Assembly (NCBI GenBank): GCA_027036735.1
Contig: JALWDU010000017.1
Coordinates: forward strand, 1 to 52,254
Reading direction: 5' to 3'
DNA from: Aquificales bacterium
GTDB taxonomy: Bacteria > Aquificota > Aquificia > Aquificales > QOAS01
Length of the DNA: 52,254 nt
Notes under the pieces: generated by a model
What the model was told of the DNA's origin: nothing
Databases searched by the model: none
What the model saw: only the letters and a program-made list of their open reading frames with translations
In this document: positions 2,839-43,992 of the stretch, piece by piece
Layout: each line of letters begins with the position of its first letter
Position numbering within the stretch: the first letter of the stretch is position 1
Program-made: the position numbers and the translations under genes

Positions 2839-3717
2839 ATGAGAGCCTATCCCGAGTGCATTCCCTGTCTCGTCAAGCAGGGCTTAAACGCCGCCGAAAA
2901 GCTAAACCTCCCCAAGGAGAAACTATACGAGGTTGCGAAAGCCGGCGTTCGCTATCTGGCGCAGTTTGAGGAGTTCGACCGCTCCCCCGCCTATTACGCC
3001 TACCACATACAGAAATTTGTTAAGGAACTGACCGGTGTGGAAGACCCCTTTGGGGAGATAAAGAGAATTTCCAACCTAAAGGCGGATGAAATTTTAAACA
3101 AACTCGACGTGGAGGAGTATCTGAAGGGAGACCGATTGAGGAGGGCTTTAAAACTTTCCGCAATAGGGAATATACTCGACTTCGCTATACTCTCGGAGGA
3201 GGAAGCTTACGGGAAAATCCTCCAACTGTTGGAAAAGGATTTCGCGATAGACCACTCCGAGTGGTTCGAAAGGGAACTCGAGACCTCCGAGAGGGTCTTA
3301 ATCTTGGGCGACAACGCGGGGGAGATAGTTTTCGACAAATTCCTCGTAAAGGTCTTAAAGGAGTTGGGTAAAGAGGTGGTTTACGCCGTTAAGGGTGCGC
3401 CAATTTTGAACGACGCCACCCTCGAGGATGCGAAAATGGTTTCCCTAACCTCCCTTTGTAGGGTTATAACAAACGGCAACGACCGCGTTGGAACCGATTT
3501 GTCGGTAGCCTCGGAGGAGTTTTTAAACGAGTGGCAAAGGGCGGATTTGGTTATCTCCAAAGGTCAGGCGAATTTCGAAAGCCTAAGCGGTATTGGGGAT
3601 AAGGTTATCTACTTCCTCCTAACCGCAAAGTGCCGCCCCGTCGTTTTGGAAAGCGGCGCCTCTAAGGTGGGGGATTTGATTTTTAAAAGGAATAAACCCC
3701 TCGAGGGGGGGAATTAA
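2839..3717 (+). CDS. DUF89/ARMT1-like damage-control phosphatase
   Basis: N-terminal ECIPC, AIGNILDF, DNAGEIVFD, P(I)LNDAT, SKGQANFESL and LTAKC motifs. Confidence 0.92.
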   Translation: MRAYPECIPCLVKQGLNAAEKLNLPKEKLYEVAKAGVRYLAQFEEFDRSPAYYAYHIQKFVKELTGVEDPFGEIKRISNLKADEILNKLDVEEYLKGDRLRRALKLSAIGNILDFAILSEEEAYGKILQLLEKDFAIDHSEWFERELETSERVLILGDNAGEIVFDKFLVKVLKELGKEVVYAVKGAPILNDATLEDAKMVSLTSLCRVITNGNDRVGTDLSVASEEFLNEWQRADLVISKGQANFESLSGIGDKVIYFLLTAKCRPVVLESGASKVGDLIFKRNKPLEGGN

Positions 3718-6700
3718 ATTAAACCCAATTTCTTTTTCATTTCATCGTCATAAATGGCTTTATCCCAATTTTGGGCTTTCTTTATCTCTTCGGGGTCAAA
3801 GATTGCACCGTGGAGGTCGGCTCCTTCGAGATTTGCATTTTCAAGGTCAACTTCAGTTAGATTAGCCATATTTAAATTGGCACCTTCCAAATGAGCTTCT
3901 CTCAAATTAGCTTTGGTTAAATTTGCCCCTTTTAAACAAGCATTTTCCAAAAAAGCCATCCATAAATTAGCATTTATTAAATTTGCATTTGCTAAAATGC
4001 AATGTCTTAAATTTGCTAGCATTAGATTTGCTCCTGTTAAAAGACCTTCTGATATATCAGACTTATATAAATCAGCCATTAATAAGTTTGCTCCCCGTAA
4101 ATTAATTTGCTTTAGTCTGGAATACATTAAAGTAGCTCCTGATATTTCAGCTTTTTCTAAAAAAGCTTTCTCTAAATTGGTTTCTACCAAGTAAGCATCT
4201 CTTAAATTTACCTCTTTTAAGTTTGCTTCAAACAATTTAGTTTTGAATAAAGTAGCTTTTTCTAAATTAGCTTGTTCTAAACAAGCTTTTGTTAGATTGG
4301 TATAGCTTAAATCGGTTTTACTTAAATTAATTCCCACAAAATTTATTTTTTTTAAATTTAAAAATTTCAACGGAAATTCTTCTATAAAAGTATCTTCACA
4401 ACTCTGGATAAATTTAACCATACAAACAAATCTATTTTTGGTTTCTAAATCCCTAAACTTAACAGGTGTTACTTTATTGGTGAAAATCCAAAAATTTCCG
4501 AAACACCAAAGAGCTTTTTTGAAAATATCTTTAAAAATATCTTCGTCATCATTGTTGCTATTTTTGCCTTTATTTTCATTAATATTAACATCTATAAAAG
4601 TAAAATTTTTTCTTAGTAACTTAGGAAACAGTTCTTCTATTTTCTCCTTAAATTTCCGTTGTTTATCCTTATCTCTTCCCCTATGAAGGTCTATTAACTC
4701 CTCCAAATATTGTCTAATTTCTTTTGTCATCTTTCGGTGGGAAAAGGTATTCCAGATAATCCTTTCAGCCTCTTTTTCATCTTCGGGTAAATTCATCATT
4801 TTGTAGTAGATGTATTCGGCGGTTAAATACTCCTGAAAGGATTTGTGAAGAAATTCAACCTCGTAGTTGTGTTCTCTAAAGTAGAAGCCTACAAGGATAT
4901 CCGTAAAAATATCTAATTCTATTCTTTCTTCTTTTTGCTTATTATCATTATCTTTAGTTTCCCTCTTATTACCTTCCATTTTAACTTTATTTTTTATTAT
5001 TTGAAATATCTCTTGAAAACCTTTGAGTTGTTTTATATCTTCTTTGTTAGCAACAAGACTTCCCTTCTTAAATTCCATCAAAAATGCAAGTTCCCTTAAA
5101 AAGTCGGGATATTTATCCCTTATTTCAAAAGGTAAAGGGTTATTTCCCATATCCCAAACGCGGTTTAGTAGTTTGTTAAATACTCTTTCATAGAATTGCG
5201 TCCTCGAAGTGGTTTCCTTTAATAAAGGGCACTTTTTTTTAGTCTCTATTAAACATTCATAAACCAACAAAAAGAGGATTATAGGTTGGTTTATTAACTC
5301 TCTAAGGTGGCATCTGTTATCCCTAAAAATCTCATCAAAAAACCAGTCATCTTCGGGTTCTTCATATTCCAAAAGGAGTTTTATTAAATCTTCCTTTATA
5401 GATTCTAACTTTCCCTTAAACTTTTGTAAGTTTTCCAAATTTAATTTCTCCAAAGCCCTTTCAAAGTTATTGAGATATTGGGTTATATCCTCCTCATCGA
5501 ATTCTCTAAGCTCCAAAACCAAGGTTTGGAAATCTATGGCGGCTTTGTTTAAAACGTCGGTAGGAATATAACGGGAAGTAATCAATATTAGGGTATTATC
5601 CTCGTCGCTCACGGCATCGTAGAACTTACCAAGCAATTCTTTTATTTCTTCATTTGTAAAGTTTCGAGGAACGACGTATTCATCCAACCCGTCGAGGATT
5701 AAAAATTTTCCCTCCCACGATTTGATTTCTATTCCATACTTCCTTTTGATGTGATTGTTTATGACCTCATAGGGATTTTCAAGGAGTTTTCCATCTTTGG
5801 TTTCTTTGATATCTCTATACCTTATAAGGAAGGCTTGTTGGGAAATATTCAACTTATTGTTTACATAGTCGTAAATCAATTTTTTGGTGAAGGAAGTCTT
5901 ACCCTCTCCGGGATAGCCCAAAAGTAGAACCATTTTTGGTGAAGGTGGTTTTAAAAACTCGAAAGGATTTTTACCCCTTAACAGGTCAGGGATAAATTCG
6001 GTTAACCTAACCTTTCTGGGGGGATAAAAGTAAAAATTACCCCTCTTTCCGCCTATTCTGTCGTTTTTTCTGCATCTTATGGGGTTCTCTTTTTTAAGAC
6101 CCTTTTCCTTAAAAAGGAGATTTCTCTCGTAAATCCTAAAGGAGGGTTCGACATACAAATCCTTTAAAGGGATTTTAAAAACTTTTTCGTTTTTCAAAAT
6201 GGGGTCTTCGAATTCCTTTGCGAACTCGTAAAGTTTCCTTTTATATTTGTAAACCGAGGAGTAGCGGCTTTCTTCTTCTATCCACTTCTTTAGTTGAGAT
6301 ACCCCTTTATCCTCATCGCTTTTTTCCAAGTCCAGTATTCGGTAGAAATGGTTTTCCGCTAAACGGACGGTATCCCCGAATATACGTTCCTCATTTTTTG
6401 TAATAACCTTTTCAAGTTCTTTATTTCGGTTTTCGTCGCTTAGCAAAATCCGCTTGTAGTATTCCCATATTTGGCTTAGAACCTCATTTTGTGGAAAATT
6501 TTTGAAATCGAACTCCTCAAGTTTCGGATTTGTCCCTTCCAATTGGAGGAGTTTTTTCACAATTTCTTCATTCCCGTGAATGTTTTTTATTCCGTATCCC
6601 CTTAAGGTTTCCACGAAAGCGGTAAAAAAGGCGGTGGATAGAATGGTTTTAAAAACCTCTTCCGGTGTGGAATTTTTCCAATTGCTGTAAACCTCTGCAA

Positions 6701-6800
6701 ATATTTTCTTTATCCCCTCCGATGTCAGATTGATAAAAACACCTTTTGCCACTTCTACCACGAAAGGAAAAAGCGAAGATGTTAGAAAAGCCTCCAACAT
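3714..6800 (-). CDS. NACHT (STAND) NTPase with N-terminal helical region and about 37 C-terminal pentapeptide repeats
   Basis: DLYVEP pre-P-loop, Walker A GYPGEGKT, Walker B LILDGLDE, LITSR, FLHKSFQEYLTAEY; A(D/N)LxxA-type repeats over about 186 aa; AT-rich relative to flanks. Confidence 0.9.
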   Translation of the reverse strand: MLEAFLTSSLFPFVVEVAKGVFINLTSEGIKKIFAEVYSNWKNSTPEEVFKTILSTAFFTAFVETLRGYGIKNIHGNEEIVKKLLQLEGTNPKLEEFDFKNFPQNEVLSQIWEYYKRILLSDENRNKELEKVITKNEERIFGDTVRLAENHFYRILDLEKSDEDKGVSQLKKWIEEESRYSSVYKYKRKLYEFAKEFEDPILKNEKVFKIPLKDLYVEPSFRIYERNLLFKEKGLKKENPIRCRKNDRIGGKRGNFYFYPPRKVRLTEFIPDLLRGKNPFEFLKPPSPKMVLLLGYPGEGKTSFTKKLIYDYVNNKLNISQQAFLIRYRDIKETKDGKLLENPYEVINNHIKRKYGIEIKSWEGKFLILDGLDEYVVPRNFTNEEIKELLGKFYDAVSDEDNTLILITSRYIPTDVLNKAAIDFQTLVLELREFDEEDITQYLNNFERALEKLNLENLQKFKGKLESIKEDLIKLLLEYEEPEDDWFFDEIFRDNRCHLRELINQPIILFLLVYECLIETKKKCPLLKETTSRTQFYERVFNKLLNRVWDMGNNPLPFEIRDKYPDFLRELAFLMEFKKGSLVANKEDIKQLKGFQEIFQIIKNKVKMEGNKRETKDNDNKQKEERIELDIFTDILVGFYFREHNYEVEFLHKSFQEYLTAEYIYYKMMNLPEDEKEAERIIWNTFSHRKMTKEIRQYLEELIDLHRGRDKDKQRKFKEKIEELFPKLLRKNFTFIDVNINENKGKNSNNDDEDIFKDIFKKALWCFGNFWIFTNKVTPVKFRDLETKNRFVCMVKFIQSCEDTFIEEFPLKFLNLKKINFVGINLSKTDLSYTNLTKACLEQANLEKATLFKTKLFEANLKEVNLRDAYLVETNLEKAFLEKAEISGATLMYSRLKQINLRGANLLMADLYKSDISEGLLTGANLMLANLRHCILANANLINANLWMAFLENACLKGANLTKANLREAHLEGANLNMANLTEVDLENANLEGADLHGAIFDPEEIKKAQNWDKAIYDDEMKKKLGLI
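3729..3830. repeat. 102-bp block shared with 14063-14164 (NACHT 3' tail, copy 1)
   Basis: Manual alignment shows 5 mismatches in 102 bp; encodes LEGADLxGAIFDPEEIKKAxNWDKAIYDDEMKKK. Confidence 0.95.
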
Positions 6801-14047: not shown

Positions 14048-16195
14048 CTATTGGAGTCCAAGTTTCTTTTTCATTTCATCGTCGTAAATGGCTTTATCCC
14101 AATTTTTAGCTTTCTTTATCTCTTCGGGGTCAAAGATTGCACCGCGGAGGTCGGCACCTTCGAGGTTGGCATTTTGAAGGTTGGCATTTTGGAGGTGAGC
14201 GCAGGTTAAATTAGTGTTAACTAAATTTGTTTGAGTTAAGTCTGCTCCTATTAAAATAGCTCTATTTAGATTAGCACCGCTTAAATTAGCTCTATTTAAA
14301 TCAGCTCTATGTAAATTAGCGAAACTTAAATGGGCACCTATTAAATCAACACCTATTAAAGTGATTTCTGATAAAGGAAGTTTAGCTATAAAGGTATCCA
14401 CACGCATTTGAGTGTGTTTTAACAAATCTGCAAATCTATTTTTTTAGTATTCCTCTTCCAATTGAATTGGTTTTATATTTCTCACAAAAATCCACAAATT
14501 TCCAAAACACCAAAGGGGTTTATTTAAAGGTTTTTCCCCCACCAATTCGTGCGGTTTTACAACAAAATCTTTTTCCAACAAAGAAGGGAAAACATCTTTC
14601 ATCTTTTCCAAAAATTGGTCTTGTTTTTCCCTATCCTCCTTGCGGTGTTTTTCAATGATGGTTTCCAAAAACTTCCTAACTTTGGGTGAAATCTGTTTTT
14701 TCGAAAATAAATCCCATATTAGGTCTTCATACTCTTTATTTTCCTTATTGAGGTTTTCCAATAACCGGTTGTAGATATTCGAGGCCGCCAAATACTCTTG
14801 GAAAGTTTTGTGTATAAATTCCACCGTTTGGGTTCCCTTATCGTTACCCCTGTGGGGGTAAAAGAAGGTTAAAAGACTCCCCAAAAGGGCTTTTTCGGAA
14901 AGTTTGGTTTTCCTCTTGAGGGTTTCAAAAACCTTTAGTTTCTCAACTTCTTCTAAGGTTGCATAAGGTTTGTTCGAGAACTCTATGAAGAATGCGAGTT
15001 CTTCCAAAAACCTCCTATATAGGTAATCCCAGTCGGCAGAGGGAATCACCTTTTTTAGGGGGTTATAAGTGTCATTTGTTTCTATACTTTTTTCCCACTC
15101 CCGTTGGATTACCGTATTTATAAGTTCCTTGTATAGTTCGATATCGTTCCCTATTGTTGGAGTTTTTCCTTTCCTCAAATAGAGGTGGGCGAGCATATAG
15201 AGCAATAAGGGTTGGTCTACTAAAGGTTCTTTCTCCCTTAGATTGTCCTTAACTCTCTCCTTTAAGAGGTCAAAGTTTTCGAGATACACCTTTGGGGGAT
15301 TTTCTGGATTTACCCTTTTCTGGTATTCGTATTTTTCCTCCAAAACTTGTTTGTATTTGTCCAAAAATTCGTTTATCTCCTCGAGGTTAAAAGGTTGTAA
15401 TTCCCAGACGGTGTAGCCCAATCTTTTGTTTAAATCTTCTAAGAATTCTCTAAAATGTTCTTCAGTAGGATATTTAGGGCGTGAGGTTATCAGAACCTTG
15501 CAGTTGTATTTACTTAAACCTTCTACCAATTTTTCTAAAAGGTTTTTGGTTTCTTTCTCCGTCAGGTGGTAGTTCATAATAAATTCGTCCAACCCGTCGA
15601 GGAGGAGAATGGAATTTCTATAACCCTTAAAGAGGTATATAACCTCCTCATCCCACAAAGAGGGGTCGTGGGGCTGGTCGTATTCCCCTCTTAGGTAATT
15701 TGTTAAAACCTTTACCGGGTCGTCTTTAAATTCCTTGGGTAGATATCTCAACCGAACCGTGTAGAGGTTTCTTTTGAAAACCTTTTTGGGATAAGGTTCT
15801 CGGTTGTTTTCCGCCCAATCGTAGGAGAGTTTTTTTATTAGAGAACTTTTACCGCCACCGGGTTGCCCCAAGAGGAGGATGAAACTATTTTGGTTATTCT
15901 CCCACCTATCCCATATCAGGTCGGAAACACCTTTGGGTTCCAACGATTGGTTTGAAATTAAATCTTTAACTCCTTTGGGGTCGGTGTAGACCTCCTTTAG
16001 GGAAACTCCCAAATCCCCGTCCAGGGGTAGGGGTTTTTCAAAAACCCTTTTAAGGGTCTCCTCATATTTATTTTTTACCTTTTTACGTTTAGAGCGATTT
16101 TCTCCTTTTTCCCAAATAGAGAAACCTACTTTCGTAAAAAGTATAGAAAAAATTTTCTCTCCTATTTGAGTGATAAGGTTTATAAAGTCCATCAA
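14048..16195 (-). pseudogene. NACHT + pentapeptide-repeat protein, paralogue 2, split by one in-frame TAA (14444-14446)
   Basis: Walker A GQPGGGKS, Walker B LLLDGLDE and FIHKTFQEYLAA in 14444-16195. The reading frame continues past the TAA (KNRFADLLKHTQ...) into about 16 pentapeptide repeats, collinear with paralogue 1. Confidence 0.85.
14063..14164. repeat. 102-bp block shared with 3729-3830 (NACHT 3' tail, copy 2)
   Basis: About 95% identical to 3729-3830, same orientation. Confidence 0.95.
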
Positions 16196-32578: not shown

Positions 32579-34384
32579 ATGGCGGTGGAATTCTTTTCAA
32601 CCCTTGTCGGTTATGTGAAGAGTTTGAAACTCCAAGAGTTGGTCGTTTTCGTTTCCTACCCTTTGGGGTTTGGTATCTCCATACTCTCCATCCGGTGGTT
32701 TTTGAAAAGGAGGCAACCGCCGCCGCAGGAGAGAGCGGCTCTATACGCCATCGACGCACTCCTCTTCGCGCTGCTGGGCGTCTTTCTACTTCAAAAGATT
32801 TACGACCCTATATTGAAGCTCCTCTTTAGGGATATGTTTTTATCCCTCACCGCCTTAGCCCTCTCCGTTTCGGTGTTTTCCATCTCCGAAAGGTTCAAAA
32901 GGCTCCGTTGGCTGACCTATACCGGTTTAATTCTCTCCCTACTCGTGGAGGTGGTAATTATCTTCACCACCGACCTGAGGTTGATAAACGTTTTAATCCC
33001 CCTTAGGAAGTTGCTGATACTGCTCTCGGTATATCCGGCGCTGTTAGCCTTGCTGGAATTGCTCCCTTCGAAGCGGTTGAGGAGGTTGCTCGCCTTTTTC
33101 TTCACCCTGCTAATGGTGGGGGTTGGCATCGCCTGGGAGTTGGGGGTTGTCGAATTCGACCTAAAGGCGTTCATAGGTTTGGCGGTTGTGGCGGTCGCCT
33201 CGCTGATATACTCCTGGTTGCTCGTAAACGGCTTAACCCTAGCCGAGAGGTTGCTAAAGAATTGGTCGGTCGAAGCCGAAGACCGCGAACAGCTACTCTC
33301 CTCCCTCCAACAGTTGGCACTCGTATTCCTTTTATGGGTTTACTGGCAGGTGGGGGTTCACACCCTAAACCTGGGGGATTTAGTCTCCAAATTGGAGAAC
33401 CTATACCTGATAGATACCGACATAGTTAGGATAAACCTCTACAACCTGCTTTCGGCATCCTTCCTCCTCTGGTTCCTCTACACCTTAATTAACCTCCTAA
33501 AGAAGGTCGTCAAGTTCCTCTTTCCCCCGCAGGAGAGGGAGGAAAAGGGGGGTTCCCTCGAGGCGGTCGTTTACAATCTCGGCATCCTCTTCGTGGTGGC
33601 GGTATTTTTGGCGAAATTGGGGCTAACCTGGAAGGTTATCCTCCCCCTAGCCGGTGCGTTGGGTATAGGTTTGGGGTTCGGTCTGCAGACTATACTCAAC
33701 AACTACGTTAGCGGTTTCATCTTGATGTTTAGCAAAAACATCAAGGTTGGTGACTTTGTGGAGCTCCCCGGCAACGCCGGGCGTTTTATAAACAATCCAT
33801 CTTCGACAATTTTTGGAAGGGTGGAGGATATCAGCGTGCTGACCACCCGCATAAAGACCCTCGACGGGATAGACATACTCGTTCCAAACTCCACCTTTAT
33901 AGGGAGCCAAATTATCAACTACTCTTTCAGGAACCATTATGTTAGGGTTAGGTTCCCCTTTGGGGTAGCCTATTCCTCCGACCCCAAAAAGGTCAAGGAG
34001 ATACTTTTAAAGGTCGCCTACGAATGTCCCTGGGCTAAAAACTATTACAAACCGCCGCAGGTGTGGTTTGTCGAAATGGGCGACAGCGCCTTAATCTTCC
34101 ACCTACTCTTTTGGGTCGATATAAGGGAGGTTTGGAGAAACGCTTATGCAACGGTGTCGCACGGTCTTTTTGACTGGGTAAACACCAACGCCTGGTATAA
34201 ACTCAAGGAGGCGGGTATAGAAATACCTTTCCCCCAACAGGACCTTTGGTTTAGAAACTCCCTAAAGGTGGTTTTGGAAAAAGATGACGGCACACCCCTT
34301 GCGGTTTTTGACAAACCAAACCTACCCCAAAGGGAGGGCGAAAATAATACCCGTGAGGGAAATAAGTCAACCACCCCGCTATGA
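32579..34384 (+). CDS. mscS: Mechanosensitive ion channel MscS family protein with extended TM region
   Basis: GALGIGLGFGLQ, NYVSGF, IKVGDFVE, VPNS, GVAYSSDP and GIEIPFPQQD; last codons and stop come from the downstream repeat. Confidence 0.93.
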   Translation: MAVEFFSTLVGYVKSLKLQELVVFVSYPLGFGISILSIRWFLKRRQPPPQERAALYAIDALLFALLGVFLLQKIYDPILKLLFRDMFLSLTALALSVSVFSISERFKRLRWLTYTGLILSLLVEVVIIFTTDLRLINVLIPLRKLLILLSVYPALLALLELLPSKRLRRLLAFFFTLLMVGVGIAWELGVVEFDLKAFIGLAVVAVASLIYSWLLVNGLTLAERLLKNWSVEAEDREQLLSSLQQLALVFLLWVYWQVGVHTLNLGDLVSKLENLYLIDTDIVRINLYNLLSASFLLWFLYTLINLLKKVVKFLFPPQEREEKGGSLEAVVYNLGILFVVAVFLAKLGLTWKVILPLAGALGIGLGFGLQTILNNYVSGFILMFSKNIKVGDFVELPGNAGRFINNPSSTIFGRVEDISVLTTRIKTLDGIDILVPNSTFIGSQIINYSFRNHYVRVRFPFGVAYSSDPKKVKEILLKVAYECPWAKNYYKPPQVWFVEMGDSALIFHLLFWVDIREVWRNAYATVSHGLFDWVNTNAWYKLKEAGIEIPFPQQDLWFRNSLKVVLEKDDGTPLAVFDKPNLPQREGENNTREGNKSTTPL

Positions 34385-34611
34385 GCAGCGCGGCTTGACT
34401 TTAGGCAGTGGCTACTCCAAAAGGAGATAACTACCACCAAGGCGGGTTGTTAGCCTAATCCCCTCACAAGGGGATTATCTTTGTTTTAGGTTAACCCGCA
34501 AGGTTTTTAAATTTTGTTATTTTTTTGTTTTTGTTCTTGTTTTTAACCTTGGGGGTTGGGGAATAGGGAACTCACCTATTCTCCCATATGTTTTCAAAGA
34601 ACCACCGCCTT
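34365..34611. mobile_element. Non-autonomous structured element copy A (IS200/IS605 omega-RNA/end-like)
   Basis: Inverted repeat of 43560-43794; starts GTCAACCACCCCGCT-ATGAGC-AGCGCGGCTTGAC; several hairpins; no transposase ORF. Confidence 0.65.
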
Positions 34612-34935
34612 GATAACTATATTATCAACAAACTTTTGGAGTTTACAAGTATTTTTCTCCCTGGGTCGCTTCCCTCTCCCTATCACAGATAGGGGGTTTC
34701 CAACGACCGTTTTCTATGAAACCCTATTTCACAACCTATAGGTGTCAAGCCTGGTCGTTTCCCCGTTTTAGGTTTCACCGAAGGTTTCGAAAACCCTCGC
34801 GGTGGTCTTTATACTCCTCCCCACCACGGTAGGGGCTCTTTTCCTCCATATCAAAATGGGTGTTCCCCTTAGGGAACTTGCGGGGTTTTTTCTCTTCGTG
34901 GTTTTCCCCTATACGGTGTTAATACTTTTCTATAA

Positions 34936-43296: not shown

Positions 43297-43559
43297 AACA
43301 GTAACAAACGGAGGAGTTCCAAGGTTTTTTCCAATACCTCTCGGGGTGCTTTTGCTATAAACTCCGCTTGACGGGCTTTCTAATCTAAATTCCTCACTTG
43401 GTCTGCCAATATTACATCCCTAACGGGTAATCCCTCGGGAATTTTCACCTCGAATGGATAACCTTTCTCTTTCGAAGTTATAGGACAGAATATTCCCAAA
43501 CCCGTTTTGGCATTATAATCCCTTGGAGATAGACATATGGCGGGTCTCCTTCCAGCATT
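43293..43559 (-). pseudogene. mazF: MazF/PemK toxin remnant
   Basis: AGRRPAICLSPRDYNAKTGLGIFCPITSKEKGYPFEV...ILADQVRNLD*KARQAEFIAKAP. TAG (43380-43382) sits at the conserved Trp and the 5' codons are replaced by the repeat element. Confidence 0.85.
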
Positions 43560-43794
43560 AAGGCGGGTGGTTCTTTGGGAACACAAGGGGGAATAGGTAA
43601 GTTCCCTATTCTCCAACCCGCAAGGTAAAAAAAATAAAATAACAAGATTTAAAAACCTTGCGGGTCAACCTGAAACAAGGATAAGCCCCTTGTGAGGGGA
43701 TTGGGCTAACAACCCGCCTTGGTGGTGGCTATCTCCTTTTGGAGTAGCCACTGCCTAAAGTCAAGCCCCGCTGCTCATAGCGGGGTGGTTGACT
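43560..43794. mobile_element. Non-autonomous structured element copy B (IS200/IS605 omega-RNA/end-like)
   Basis: Reverse complement of 34365-34611 (about 9 mismatches in the first ~155 nt); stems more perfect than in copy A; ends AAGCCCC...GGGGTGGTTGAC. Confidence 0.65.
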
Positions 43795-43992
43795 ACCTTC
43801 CCTCTTTCCCCAATCCACTTCGCCGTGGAGATTTTTAGAGTTTATTCGGTTCGAAAGTTCGGTAAGGTCTTTTTTGATAACTATCTTTGCACCTTTAACG
43901 TTAGTTCTTACAACTTGTGGAATGGGATTCAAATAACTCCTCCGGCAGGTTTCGAAATAACTTTCCTCTTCCCTCCTAAAGGTCTGTTCCAT
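43795..43992 (-). pseudogene. mazE: MazE/AbrB antitoxin remnant
   Basis: KIVIKK..LTELSNRINSKNLHGEVDWGKREG matches the MazE C-terminus; the element interrupts it immediately after EG; N-terminus decayed. Confidence 0.7.

Follow-up and report, generated by a model that had tools for sequence, protein, structure and literature searches.

A gene-less IS200/IS605-type element family with a TnpB-related RNA scaffold in hydrothermal-vent Aquificota

The window analysed here is a stretch of 52,254 nucleotides (positions 1 to 52,254 of contig JALWDU010000017.1, assembly GCA_027036735.1) from an Aquificales bacterium. Two copies of a strongly folded repeat, A and B, lie within it in opposite orientation, with about 245 nt in common at 87–92% identity. 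What is this repeat, and from which source does it come? A sequence-only reading had described it as an orphan, omega-RNA-like element. We find that it is a new and well-resolved family of an already described kind, the palindrome-associated transposable elements (PATEs). Our preferred reading, to which we assign a probability of about 0.72, is that A and B belong to a gene-less IS200/IS605-type family which derives from a tnpB-only insertion sequence (IS) of vent Aquificota and whose guide RNA is used in trans.

Copies of the repeat and a parental tnpB element

Self-comparison of the window resolves the inverted repeat into two arms, 34355-34532/43627-43804 (178 nt, 92% identity) and 34540-34606/43566-43632 (67 nt, 87% identity). 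The element had been counted as present twice; the repeat is real, but BLAST and nhmmer searches of the 1.35-Mb assembly (G000, 95.7% complete) locate exactly four copies, namely A and B, a third full copy (C) and a partial one (D). Copy D is the last 120 nt of an intact tnpB gene of 475 aa on contig C107. The repeat is thus no orphan, and the statement that a nuclease gene is missing holds for the window but not for the genome, which carries the cognate tnpB on C107. The BLASTN search that the sequence-only reading had proposed therefore yields two more copies and a tnpB parent with the same ends.

The parent element (C107:5946-7660) encodes a TnpB of 475 aa with the Pfam domains OrfB_IS605, Cas12f1-like_TNB and HTH_OrfB. 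Its last 120 nt are ~80% identical to the window repeat and its left end (LE) matches over ~58 nt; the suspected IS200/IS605-type ends, and the parent element without which that assignment was to be given up, are both found here. There are five tnpB genes in the genome and only that of copy D carries this right end (RE). In the parent, and likewise in the orthologues L023, L024, L065 and L082, the tnpB frame finishes with this 120-nt segment. The frame remains open through the whole core of the predicted omega-RNA, to a TGA inside GGTTGAC (C107:6232-7660, L023, L024), and a tail of ~75 aa (LKLKxLEWKKIxEVHLIWK...) is conserved in three orthologues; the scaffold is therefore fully embedded in coding sequence. 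Because the parental frame runs through the matching segment, the RNA-sense strand is the reverse of the orientation first chosen, being the minus strand of the window for A and the plus strand for B. G-U pairs are fixed on the RNA-sense strand, in agreement with this assignment.

Copy A is a complete non-autonomous IS200/IS605-type element of 350 nt, 34366-34715. In congener G004 (contig C140) its site is uninterrupted (...GGGAAATAA|ATGAAAC...) and the sequence reads straight over the junction (...GGGGGAAATAA|ATGAAACTC...). A Logan contig of run X2 runs from 34365 into ATGAAACTCTGATTTAC, which is again the empty site. These empty sites identify copy A as a 350-nt insertion directly 3′ of TTCAT, and comparison with them reveals no target duplication. 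Precise insertion 3′ of TTCAT without duplication is a signature of IS200/IS605 elements. Copy A is polymorphic, being absent from a congener and from population contigs. Together with a 98%-identical tnpB at yet another site, this polymorphism implies recent mobility in the population.

The relatives that we compared are same-genus metagenome-assembled genomes (MAGs) of hydrothermal-vent Aquificota (congeners G002, G004, G005 and G006). They contribute 10 further gene-less copies, for a total of 13 in five genomes, and the tnpB-linked copies in them sit at other sites. Complete gene-less elements are 339-400 nt long in the alignment and share one order: TTCAT in host DNA, LE with a subterminal palindrome, TTGCAA-17 nt-TATAAT, 9-10 nt, AAGGCGGGT, the ~245-nt scaffold ending ...GCGGGGTGGTTGAC, and unrelated flank. 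The tnpB element and all 11 of the complete gene-less elements have TTCAT ahead of the left end, and the LE itself is conserved in 11 gene-less copies. Terminal inverted repeats are lacking, and each end has a subterminal imperfect palindrome, on the left the hairpin CCCCCTATC-TGT-GATAGGGGG and on the right GCCCCGC-loop-GCGGGG; these two hairpins are almost identical in the copies of G002 (CCCCGCATTTTTAATGCGGGG versus CCTCGCATTTCTAATGCGGGG). A sigma70-like promoter occupies the same position in 11 of the 13 gene-less copies, in most relatives as TTGCAA, 17 nt, TATAAT, and the predicted −10 box ends 9-10 nt before AAGGCGGGT. Similarity among 23 copies stops exactly after GGTTGAC, with unique flank beyond. 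No open reading frame (ORF) is conserved among 11 gene-less copies, the longest stop-free frames of which vary in strand and frame. The stretch downstream of the repeat that A and C have in common was considered as a CRISPR leader or repeat and rejected; it is the transposon LE, also present in the tnpB element.

The RNA scaffold and its covariation

The hairpins listed in the sequence-only reading are all present: the terminal one, GTGGCTA/TAGCCAC, the 11-bp stem and GAATAGG/CCTATTC. The loop of the 11-bp stem is length-variable, T-rich in the orientation first chosen and A-rich in the RNA sense. Both copies fold far better than shuffled sequences (z = −7.2 for B and −5.4 for A, with 0/200 shuffles as good), and do so on either strand. 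The earlier remark that the fold matches no recognised RNA family was borne out, as the whole window gives no Rfam match at gathering thresholds, HEARO included; a scan of 34200-34800 at E <= 10 returned chance-level matches only, none of them credible.

The 3′ part of the scaffold, a core of 122 nt, is common to gene-less and tnpB-linked copies. Across 20 sequences 96.5% of cells in the core are paired and 12 of 35 pairs show compensatory change, compared with 6.0 ± 1.6 in shuffles (0/500 reach 12) and 1-5 in slid controls. The covariation to which the fold had been held is hence present. At one pair the change is seen among the gene-less copies themselves (AU in six, GC in five), which speaks for selection on RNA pairing since the origin of the PATE.

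The 5′ half is specific to the PATEs. In 13 copies 97.7% of its cells are paired, with one compensatory pair per hairpin (RNAalifold and pair counts). In tnpB the GAATAGG hairpin aligns with coding sequence at the corresponding position (−393 to −358 relative to the RE, z ~3-6), and this homology suggests that the PATE arose by internal deletions. Between the PATE promoter region and tnpB coding sequence homology is patchy, the GAATAGG region being the only consistent local match. The sequence-only reading had also drawn a long-range helix, AAGGCGGGT/ACCCGCCTT, closing the scaffold. The complementarity is real; covariation is not found, the changes in it being only disruptive. The helix competes with a local hairpin, CAGGC...GCCTG, which does covary. 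In tnpB-linked copies no 5′ partner of at least 6 nt was found within 570 nt.

Table 1. Positions of the elements and their parts (copy A and copy B, window coordinates; copies C and D, contigs of the same genome)
Feature	Position	Strand	Basis or remark
TTCAT target/target-adjacent motif (TAM) pentanucleotide, host DNA directly 5′ of copy A left end	34716..34720	-	empty sites; 11/11 copies
LE of copy A	34657..34715	-	homology to C107 element LE; 11 gene-less copies
LE subterminal imperfect palindrome, CCCCCTATC-TGT-GATAGGGAG	34696-34676	-	within outer GGTCG/CGACC stem
Putative sigma70-like promoter, TTGTAA-16 nt-GATAAT	34621..34648	-	consensus scan
PATE-specific 5′ half of predicted RNA	34488..34611	-	RNAalifold and pair counts, 13 copies
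5′ half: AAGGCGG(G)T segment at 5′ end	within 34488..34611	-	
5′ half: hairpin GGGAGAATAGG/CCTATTCCCC	34585-34558	-	
5′ half: stem ACCCCCAAGG/CCTTGCGGGT	34556-34494	-	length-variable A-rich loop
3′ core of omega-RNA scaffold, 122 nt	34366..34487	-	nhmmer/BLAST against tnpB 3′ end; covariation
Core hairpin 1, CCCCT-TGTG-AGGGG	34473-34460	-	
Core hairpin 2, AGGC...GCCT	34456-34440	-	
Core hairpin 3, GGTGGTAGTTATCTCC...GGAGTAGCCACTGCC	34438-34404	-	
Core hairpin 4 (RE hairpin), GTCAAGCCGCGC...GCGGGGTGGTTGAC	34399-34366	-	also transposon right end
Predicted guide of copy A, TTATTTCCCTCACGGGTATT	34346..34365	-	similarity among copies ends before it
Copy B, 5′-truncated, scaffold only	43557..43793	+	G004 orthologous site
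Predicted guide of copy B, TACCTTCCCTCTTTCCCCAA	43794..43813	+	antisense of 3′ end of MazE-like ORF
Copy C, third full copy	C94:60382-60720		gene-less
Copy D, 120-nt match	C107:7541-7660		3′ end of intact 475-aa tnpB

Guides, the cognate TnpB and competing explanations

The TnpB of copy D and two orthologues (76-81% identity) are found at different insertion sites. In three orthologues the motifs RuvC-I IDLG and RuvC-III SDTNGA and the zinc finger are observed. At RuvC-II (FIGDL) a Gly stands in place of the canonical Glu, and a Glu in PEAYTS is conserved in the three. Altae-Tran et al. (PMC10691335) described large TnpB clades with the same Gly replacement and argued that they are active by means of an alternative Glu. 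The C107 TnpB is apparently intact, with Gly at RuvC-II as in the rearranged RIIr-5 clade.

The predicted guide of copy A is antisense to the 3′-terminal codons of the MscS-family gene 32579-34384. Joined to TTCAT, it reproduces the empty site of G004 except for a single mismatch within the first 16 nt. In the genome the guides of A, B, C and D match their own flanks only (<=3 mismatches in 16 nt), with no TTCAT-adjacent match, as the donor-joint model of Meers et al. predicts. The earlier suggestion of PATE-like cassettes with a flank-derived guide is therefore upheld for the DNA, by the ends, by the sharp boundary between scaffold and flank in 23 copies, by covariation and by the lack of an ORF; that the PATE RNA is made and loaded onto TnpB in trans is what we infer.

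We propose that the element's own sigma70-like promoter (TTGCAA, 17 nt, TATAAT) would start transcription 7-10 nt upstream of AAGGCGGGT. The ~245-nt scaffold RNA would run through the right end into the flank and so acquire a guide of 16-20 nt, and TnpB from the C107 element would bind this RNA in trans. After excision by a Y1 TnpA, the complex might cut the restored donor joint, TTCAT plus guide, and recombination would then put the element back. The PATE would in this way borrow both transposase and nuclease.

A bolder version, which we consider possible and rather less than probable, regards the PATE as an independently promoted, trans-acting guide-RNA gene with a remodelled scaffold, several of which load one TnpB with several guides. 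The remodelling consists of a 5′ segment that is new and shows complementarity to the core, and of a hairpin that replaces the zinc-finger coding stretch of tnpB. If true, the family would be a natural intermediate step from transposons with one guide each to a separate effector that draws on a multi-guide repertoire, and at least seven PATEs in G002 would share one nuclease.

Several observations weigh against use of the RNA in trans. In copy A the RE hairpin contains a G.G mismatch, the A-loop stem a C.C and the long stem an A.C, and 1 nt is deleted from the 5′ segment, four helix-weakening changes in total. Copy B has neither promoter nor left end, and copy C ends in TTGAA (GGTTGAA) in place of TTGAC (GGTTGAC). 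With A weakened, B truncated and C altered at its end, the copies of this genome may be decaying. Identity between the PATE scaffold and that of the genome's single cognate TnpB is only ~80%, and the 5′ half of the PATE is without a counterpart next to tnpB, so that compatibility with the C107 TnpB is assumed. The Gly-RuvC-II clade is probably active, and catalytic competence in this lineage is a prediction only. No Y1 TnpA (PF01797) is present in the 95.7%-complete assembly; congeners G004, G005 and G006 do have PF01797, for instance on G004:C28 and G006:C198, between different ends, and the TnpA loci of congeners and of other Aquificales lack these end motifs. The runs that hold the sequence are all DNA metagenomes, none RNA.

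Apart from the change at its end, which falls on the presumed right-end cleavage position, copy C is the best preserved of the PATEs in this genome. At the usual position of tnpA in the C107 element, between LE and tnpB (C107:~6000-6230), there is a small divergent ORF (MQKKEYVRTSLRIEKHLWKEF..., ~59 aa), which looks like a ribbon-helix-helix protein.

The damage to copies A and B, the missing TnpA and the DNA-only runs, together with a 5′ module and a long-range helix showing little or no covariation, would all be expected if the elements were inert DNA parasites or relics. Their scaffold would then be inherited, neither transcribed nor used by TnpB, its structure conserved through recent common descent and through the DNA hairpins that TnpA needs. 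This explanation accounts poorly for the compensatory changes, seen even among gene-less copies, in the three 3′-module hairpins other than the terminal one of TnpA type. A TnpA substrate needs just two ends, whereas the whole ~245-nt scaffold has been kept, and the sigma70-like promoter stands at a fixed distance from it in 11 of 13 copies from five genomes. We therefore judge inert relics to be unlikely, and retain the reading in which the guide RNA acts in trans.

Domestication is far less probable still. Guide-RNA genes with a fixed guide for a host function (TldR-like repression or defence) would explain why the element has its own predicted promoter, why Gly stands in the cognate TnpB where RuvC-II canonically has its glutamate, and why A and B both sit at gene 3′ ends with guides antisense to those coding ends. 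Each guide, however, matches its own flank only, insertion sites are not the same from genome to genome, and both a congener and population contigs lack A. The TnpB is still flanked by mobile ends, at sites that vary between genomes, with a 98%-identical copy elsewhere, and its Gly variant belongs to a described, probably active clade. An origin unrelated to TnpB (an independent structured small RNA or riboswitch, a HEARO-type RNA of IscB, or a small protein gene) would fit the strong predicted folding, but we count it as already refuted by the homology of the 3′ 122 nt to the tnpB end, quite apart from the lack of an Rfam match, HEARO included, and from open frames that vary in strand and frame between copies.

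PATEs were described as non-autonomous IS200/IS605 derivatives in Haloquadratum walsbyi (PMC3119063). Meers et al. (10.1101/2023.03.14.532601) reported PATE-like elements in Geobacillus stearothermophilus and noted that PATEs often encode omega-RNAs which need TnpB from other elements. The present family resembles these in having no protein gene, in ends that carry subterminal hairpins and recur in a gene-bearing IS, in insertion 3′ of a fixed short motif without duplication, and in an omega-RNA that would require TnpB in trans. It differs from them as a new family, confined to a few vent Aquificota MAGs. Two further features, the conserved internal sigma70-like promoter directly 5′ of the scaffold and the remodelled 5′ half, in which an A-rich-loop stem takes the place of the zinc-finger coding stretch, would be modest twists on described PATEs.

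Among tnpB-only elements of the ISDra2/IS1341 type (PMC8612924) the scaffold likewise overlaps the tnpB 3′ end and stops at the right end, with the flank as guide. The TAM pentanucleotide 5′ of the left end is TTCAT here and TTGAT in ISDra2. The ISDra2 omega-RNA has a core scaffold of 116 nt (PMC10097598), and the two cores are alike in length (~116-122 nt) and in having four stems. There is no sequence similarity to the ISDra2 RNA and no Rfam family. For the ISDra2 pseudoknot, formed by the nucleotides 5′ of the guide with an upstream segment (PMC10097598), no conserved partner was seen here on inspection of the sequence by eye only, no tertiary-structure model having been made; a triplex was likewise not identified. 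The parental tnpB frame, open to the TGA inside GGTTGAC, and a TnpB with Gly at RuvC-II (RIIr-5-like, PMC10691335) also set this system apart from ISDra2. With the guide RNAs of TldRs, or exapted TnpBs (PMC10705468), the family shares a TnpB-family scaffold with a fixed guide at its own locus. TldRs do not move, are truncated and nuclease-dead, occur in linkage with host genes and have guides that match host promoters (PMC10705468); the elements described here are mobile and polymorphic, with guides that match their own flanks only.

The family is a clean natural example of the modularity of OMEGA (obligate mobile element-guided activity) systems, consisting of guide-RNA cassettes that have no nuclease gene and keep promoter, scaffold and ends. 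As this idea is already in the literature, the value of the family is that of a well-annotated test case, not of a new principle. It provides, from thermophilic Aquificota, a candidate TAM (TTCAT), a 122-nt core supported by covariation and natural empty sites, and its cognate TnpB belongs to the little-studied Gly-RuvC-II clade. Together these would allow a direct test of the trans-loading of TnpB by PATE RNAs and of the nuclease activity of a rearranged RuvC site.

Copy B and further observations

Copy A runs to 34715; the end that the sequence-only reading had placed at 34611 marks only the truncation point of copy B, since the similarity between the two stops (34611/43557) because of a deletion in B. 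At the orthologous site (L074), G004 holds 78 nt in place of copy B, ending in TTCAT directly before TACCTTCC..., from which it follows that B was inserted at TTCAT, at the mazE/mazF junction. One later deletion stripped B of its LE, its promoter and 78 nt of host DNA. Copy B is an immobile, promoter-less fossil within a dead mazEF locus. The neighbouring 87-aa ORF (43729-43992, minus strand) is MazE/AbrB-like, its last codons replaced by copy B, and the ORF at 43380-43616 (minus strand) is a PemK/MazF fragment without the first ~17 profile positions. In G004 the mazEF junction is intact (L074 3100-3330), the ATG of mazF lying within ATGAA, the complement of the TTCAT target, and mazF has an in-frame stop. 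With a fragment in the window and this stop in G004, the toxin looks dead in both.

Elsewhere in the family, a hairpin insert of ~40 nt (AAAGCGTTAA-(hairpin)-GTGCTATTGTTA) is located between omega-RNA core hairpins 1 and 2 in L014 (a G005 PATE) and in L077 and L083 (tnpB-linked copies from metagenomes). It resembles the end sequence beside tnpA at G004:C28 (L056: AAGCGTTAACCTCCGCCTTTAGGCGGAGTGCTATTGTTAGC) and could be either a very small nested element or a site at which expansion is tolerated. PATE copy L030 (G002:C26:1-450) has ...CCCCCTGCTTTAGCGGGGGGAGTGTCAT in place of its left end; this is a right end that belongs to another TnpB family and also occurs at G000:C94:~26750, which indicates that two IS families inserted one inside or next to the other. 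A MAG deposited as 'Gammaproteobacteria bacterium MAG 128' (QOAS01 contigs, L060-L070) contains at least seven copies of the Aquificota PATE described here. The genome search puts that MAG in the genus of the window's genome, and the Gammaproteobacteria label is thus probably wrong.

A second repeat of the window, a direct repeat of 124 nt (92%) at 3724-3847 and 14058-14181, also occurs at C86:6344-6437. Genes on the minus strand, such as the 1028-aa ORF 3714-6800, have it in common as the 3′ end of their coding sequence, and it resembles a paralogous C-terminal segment rather than a mobile element.

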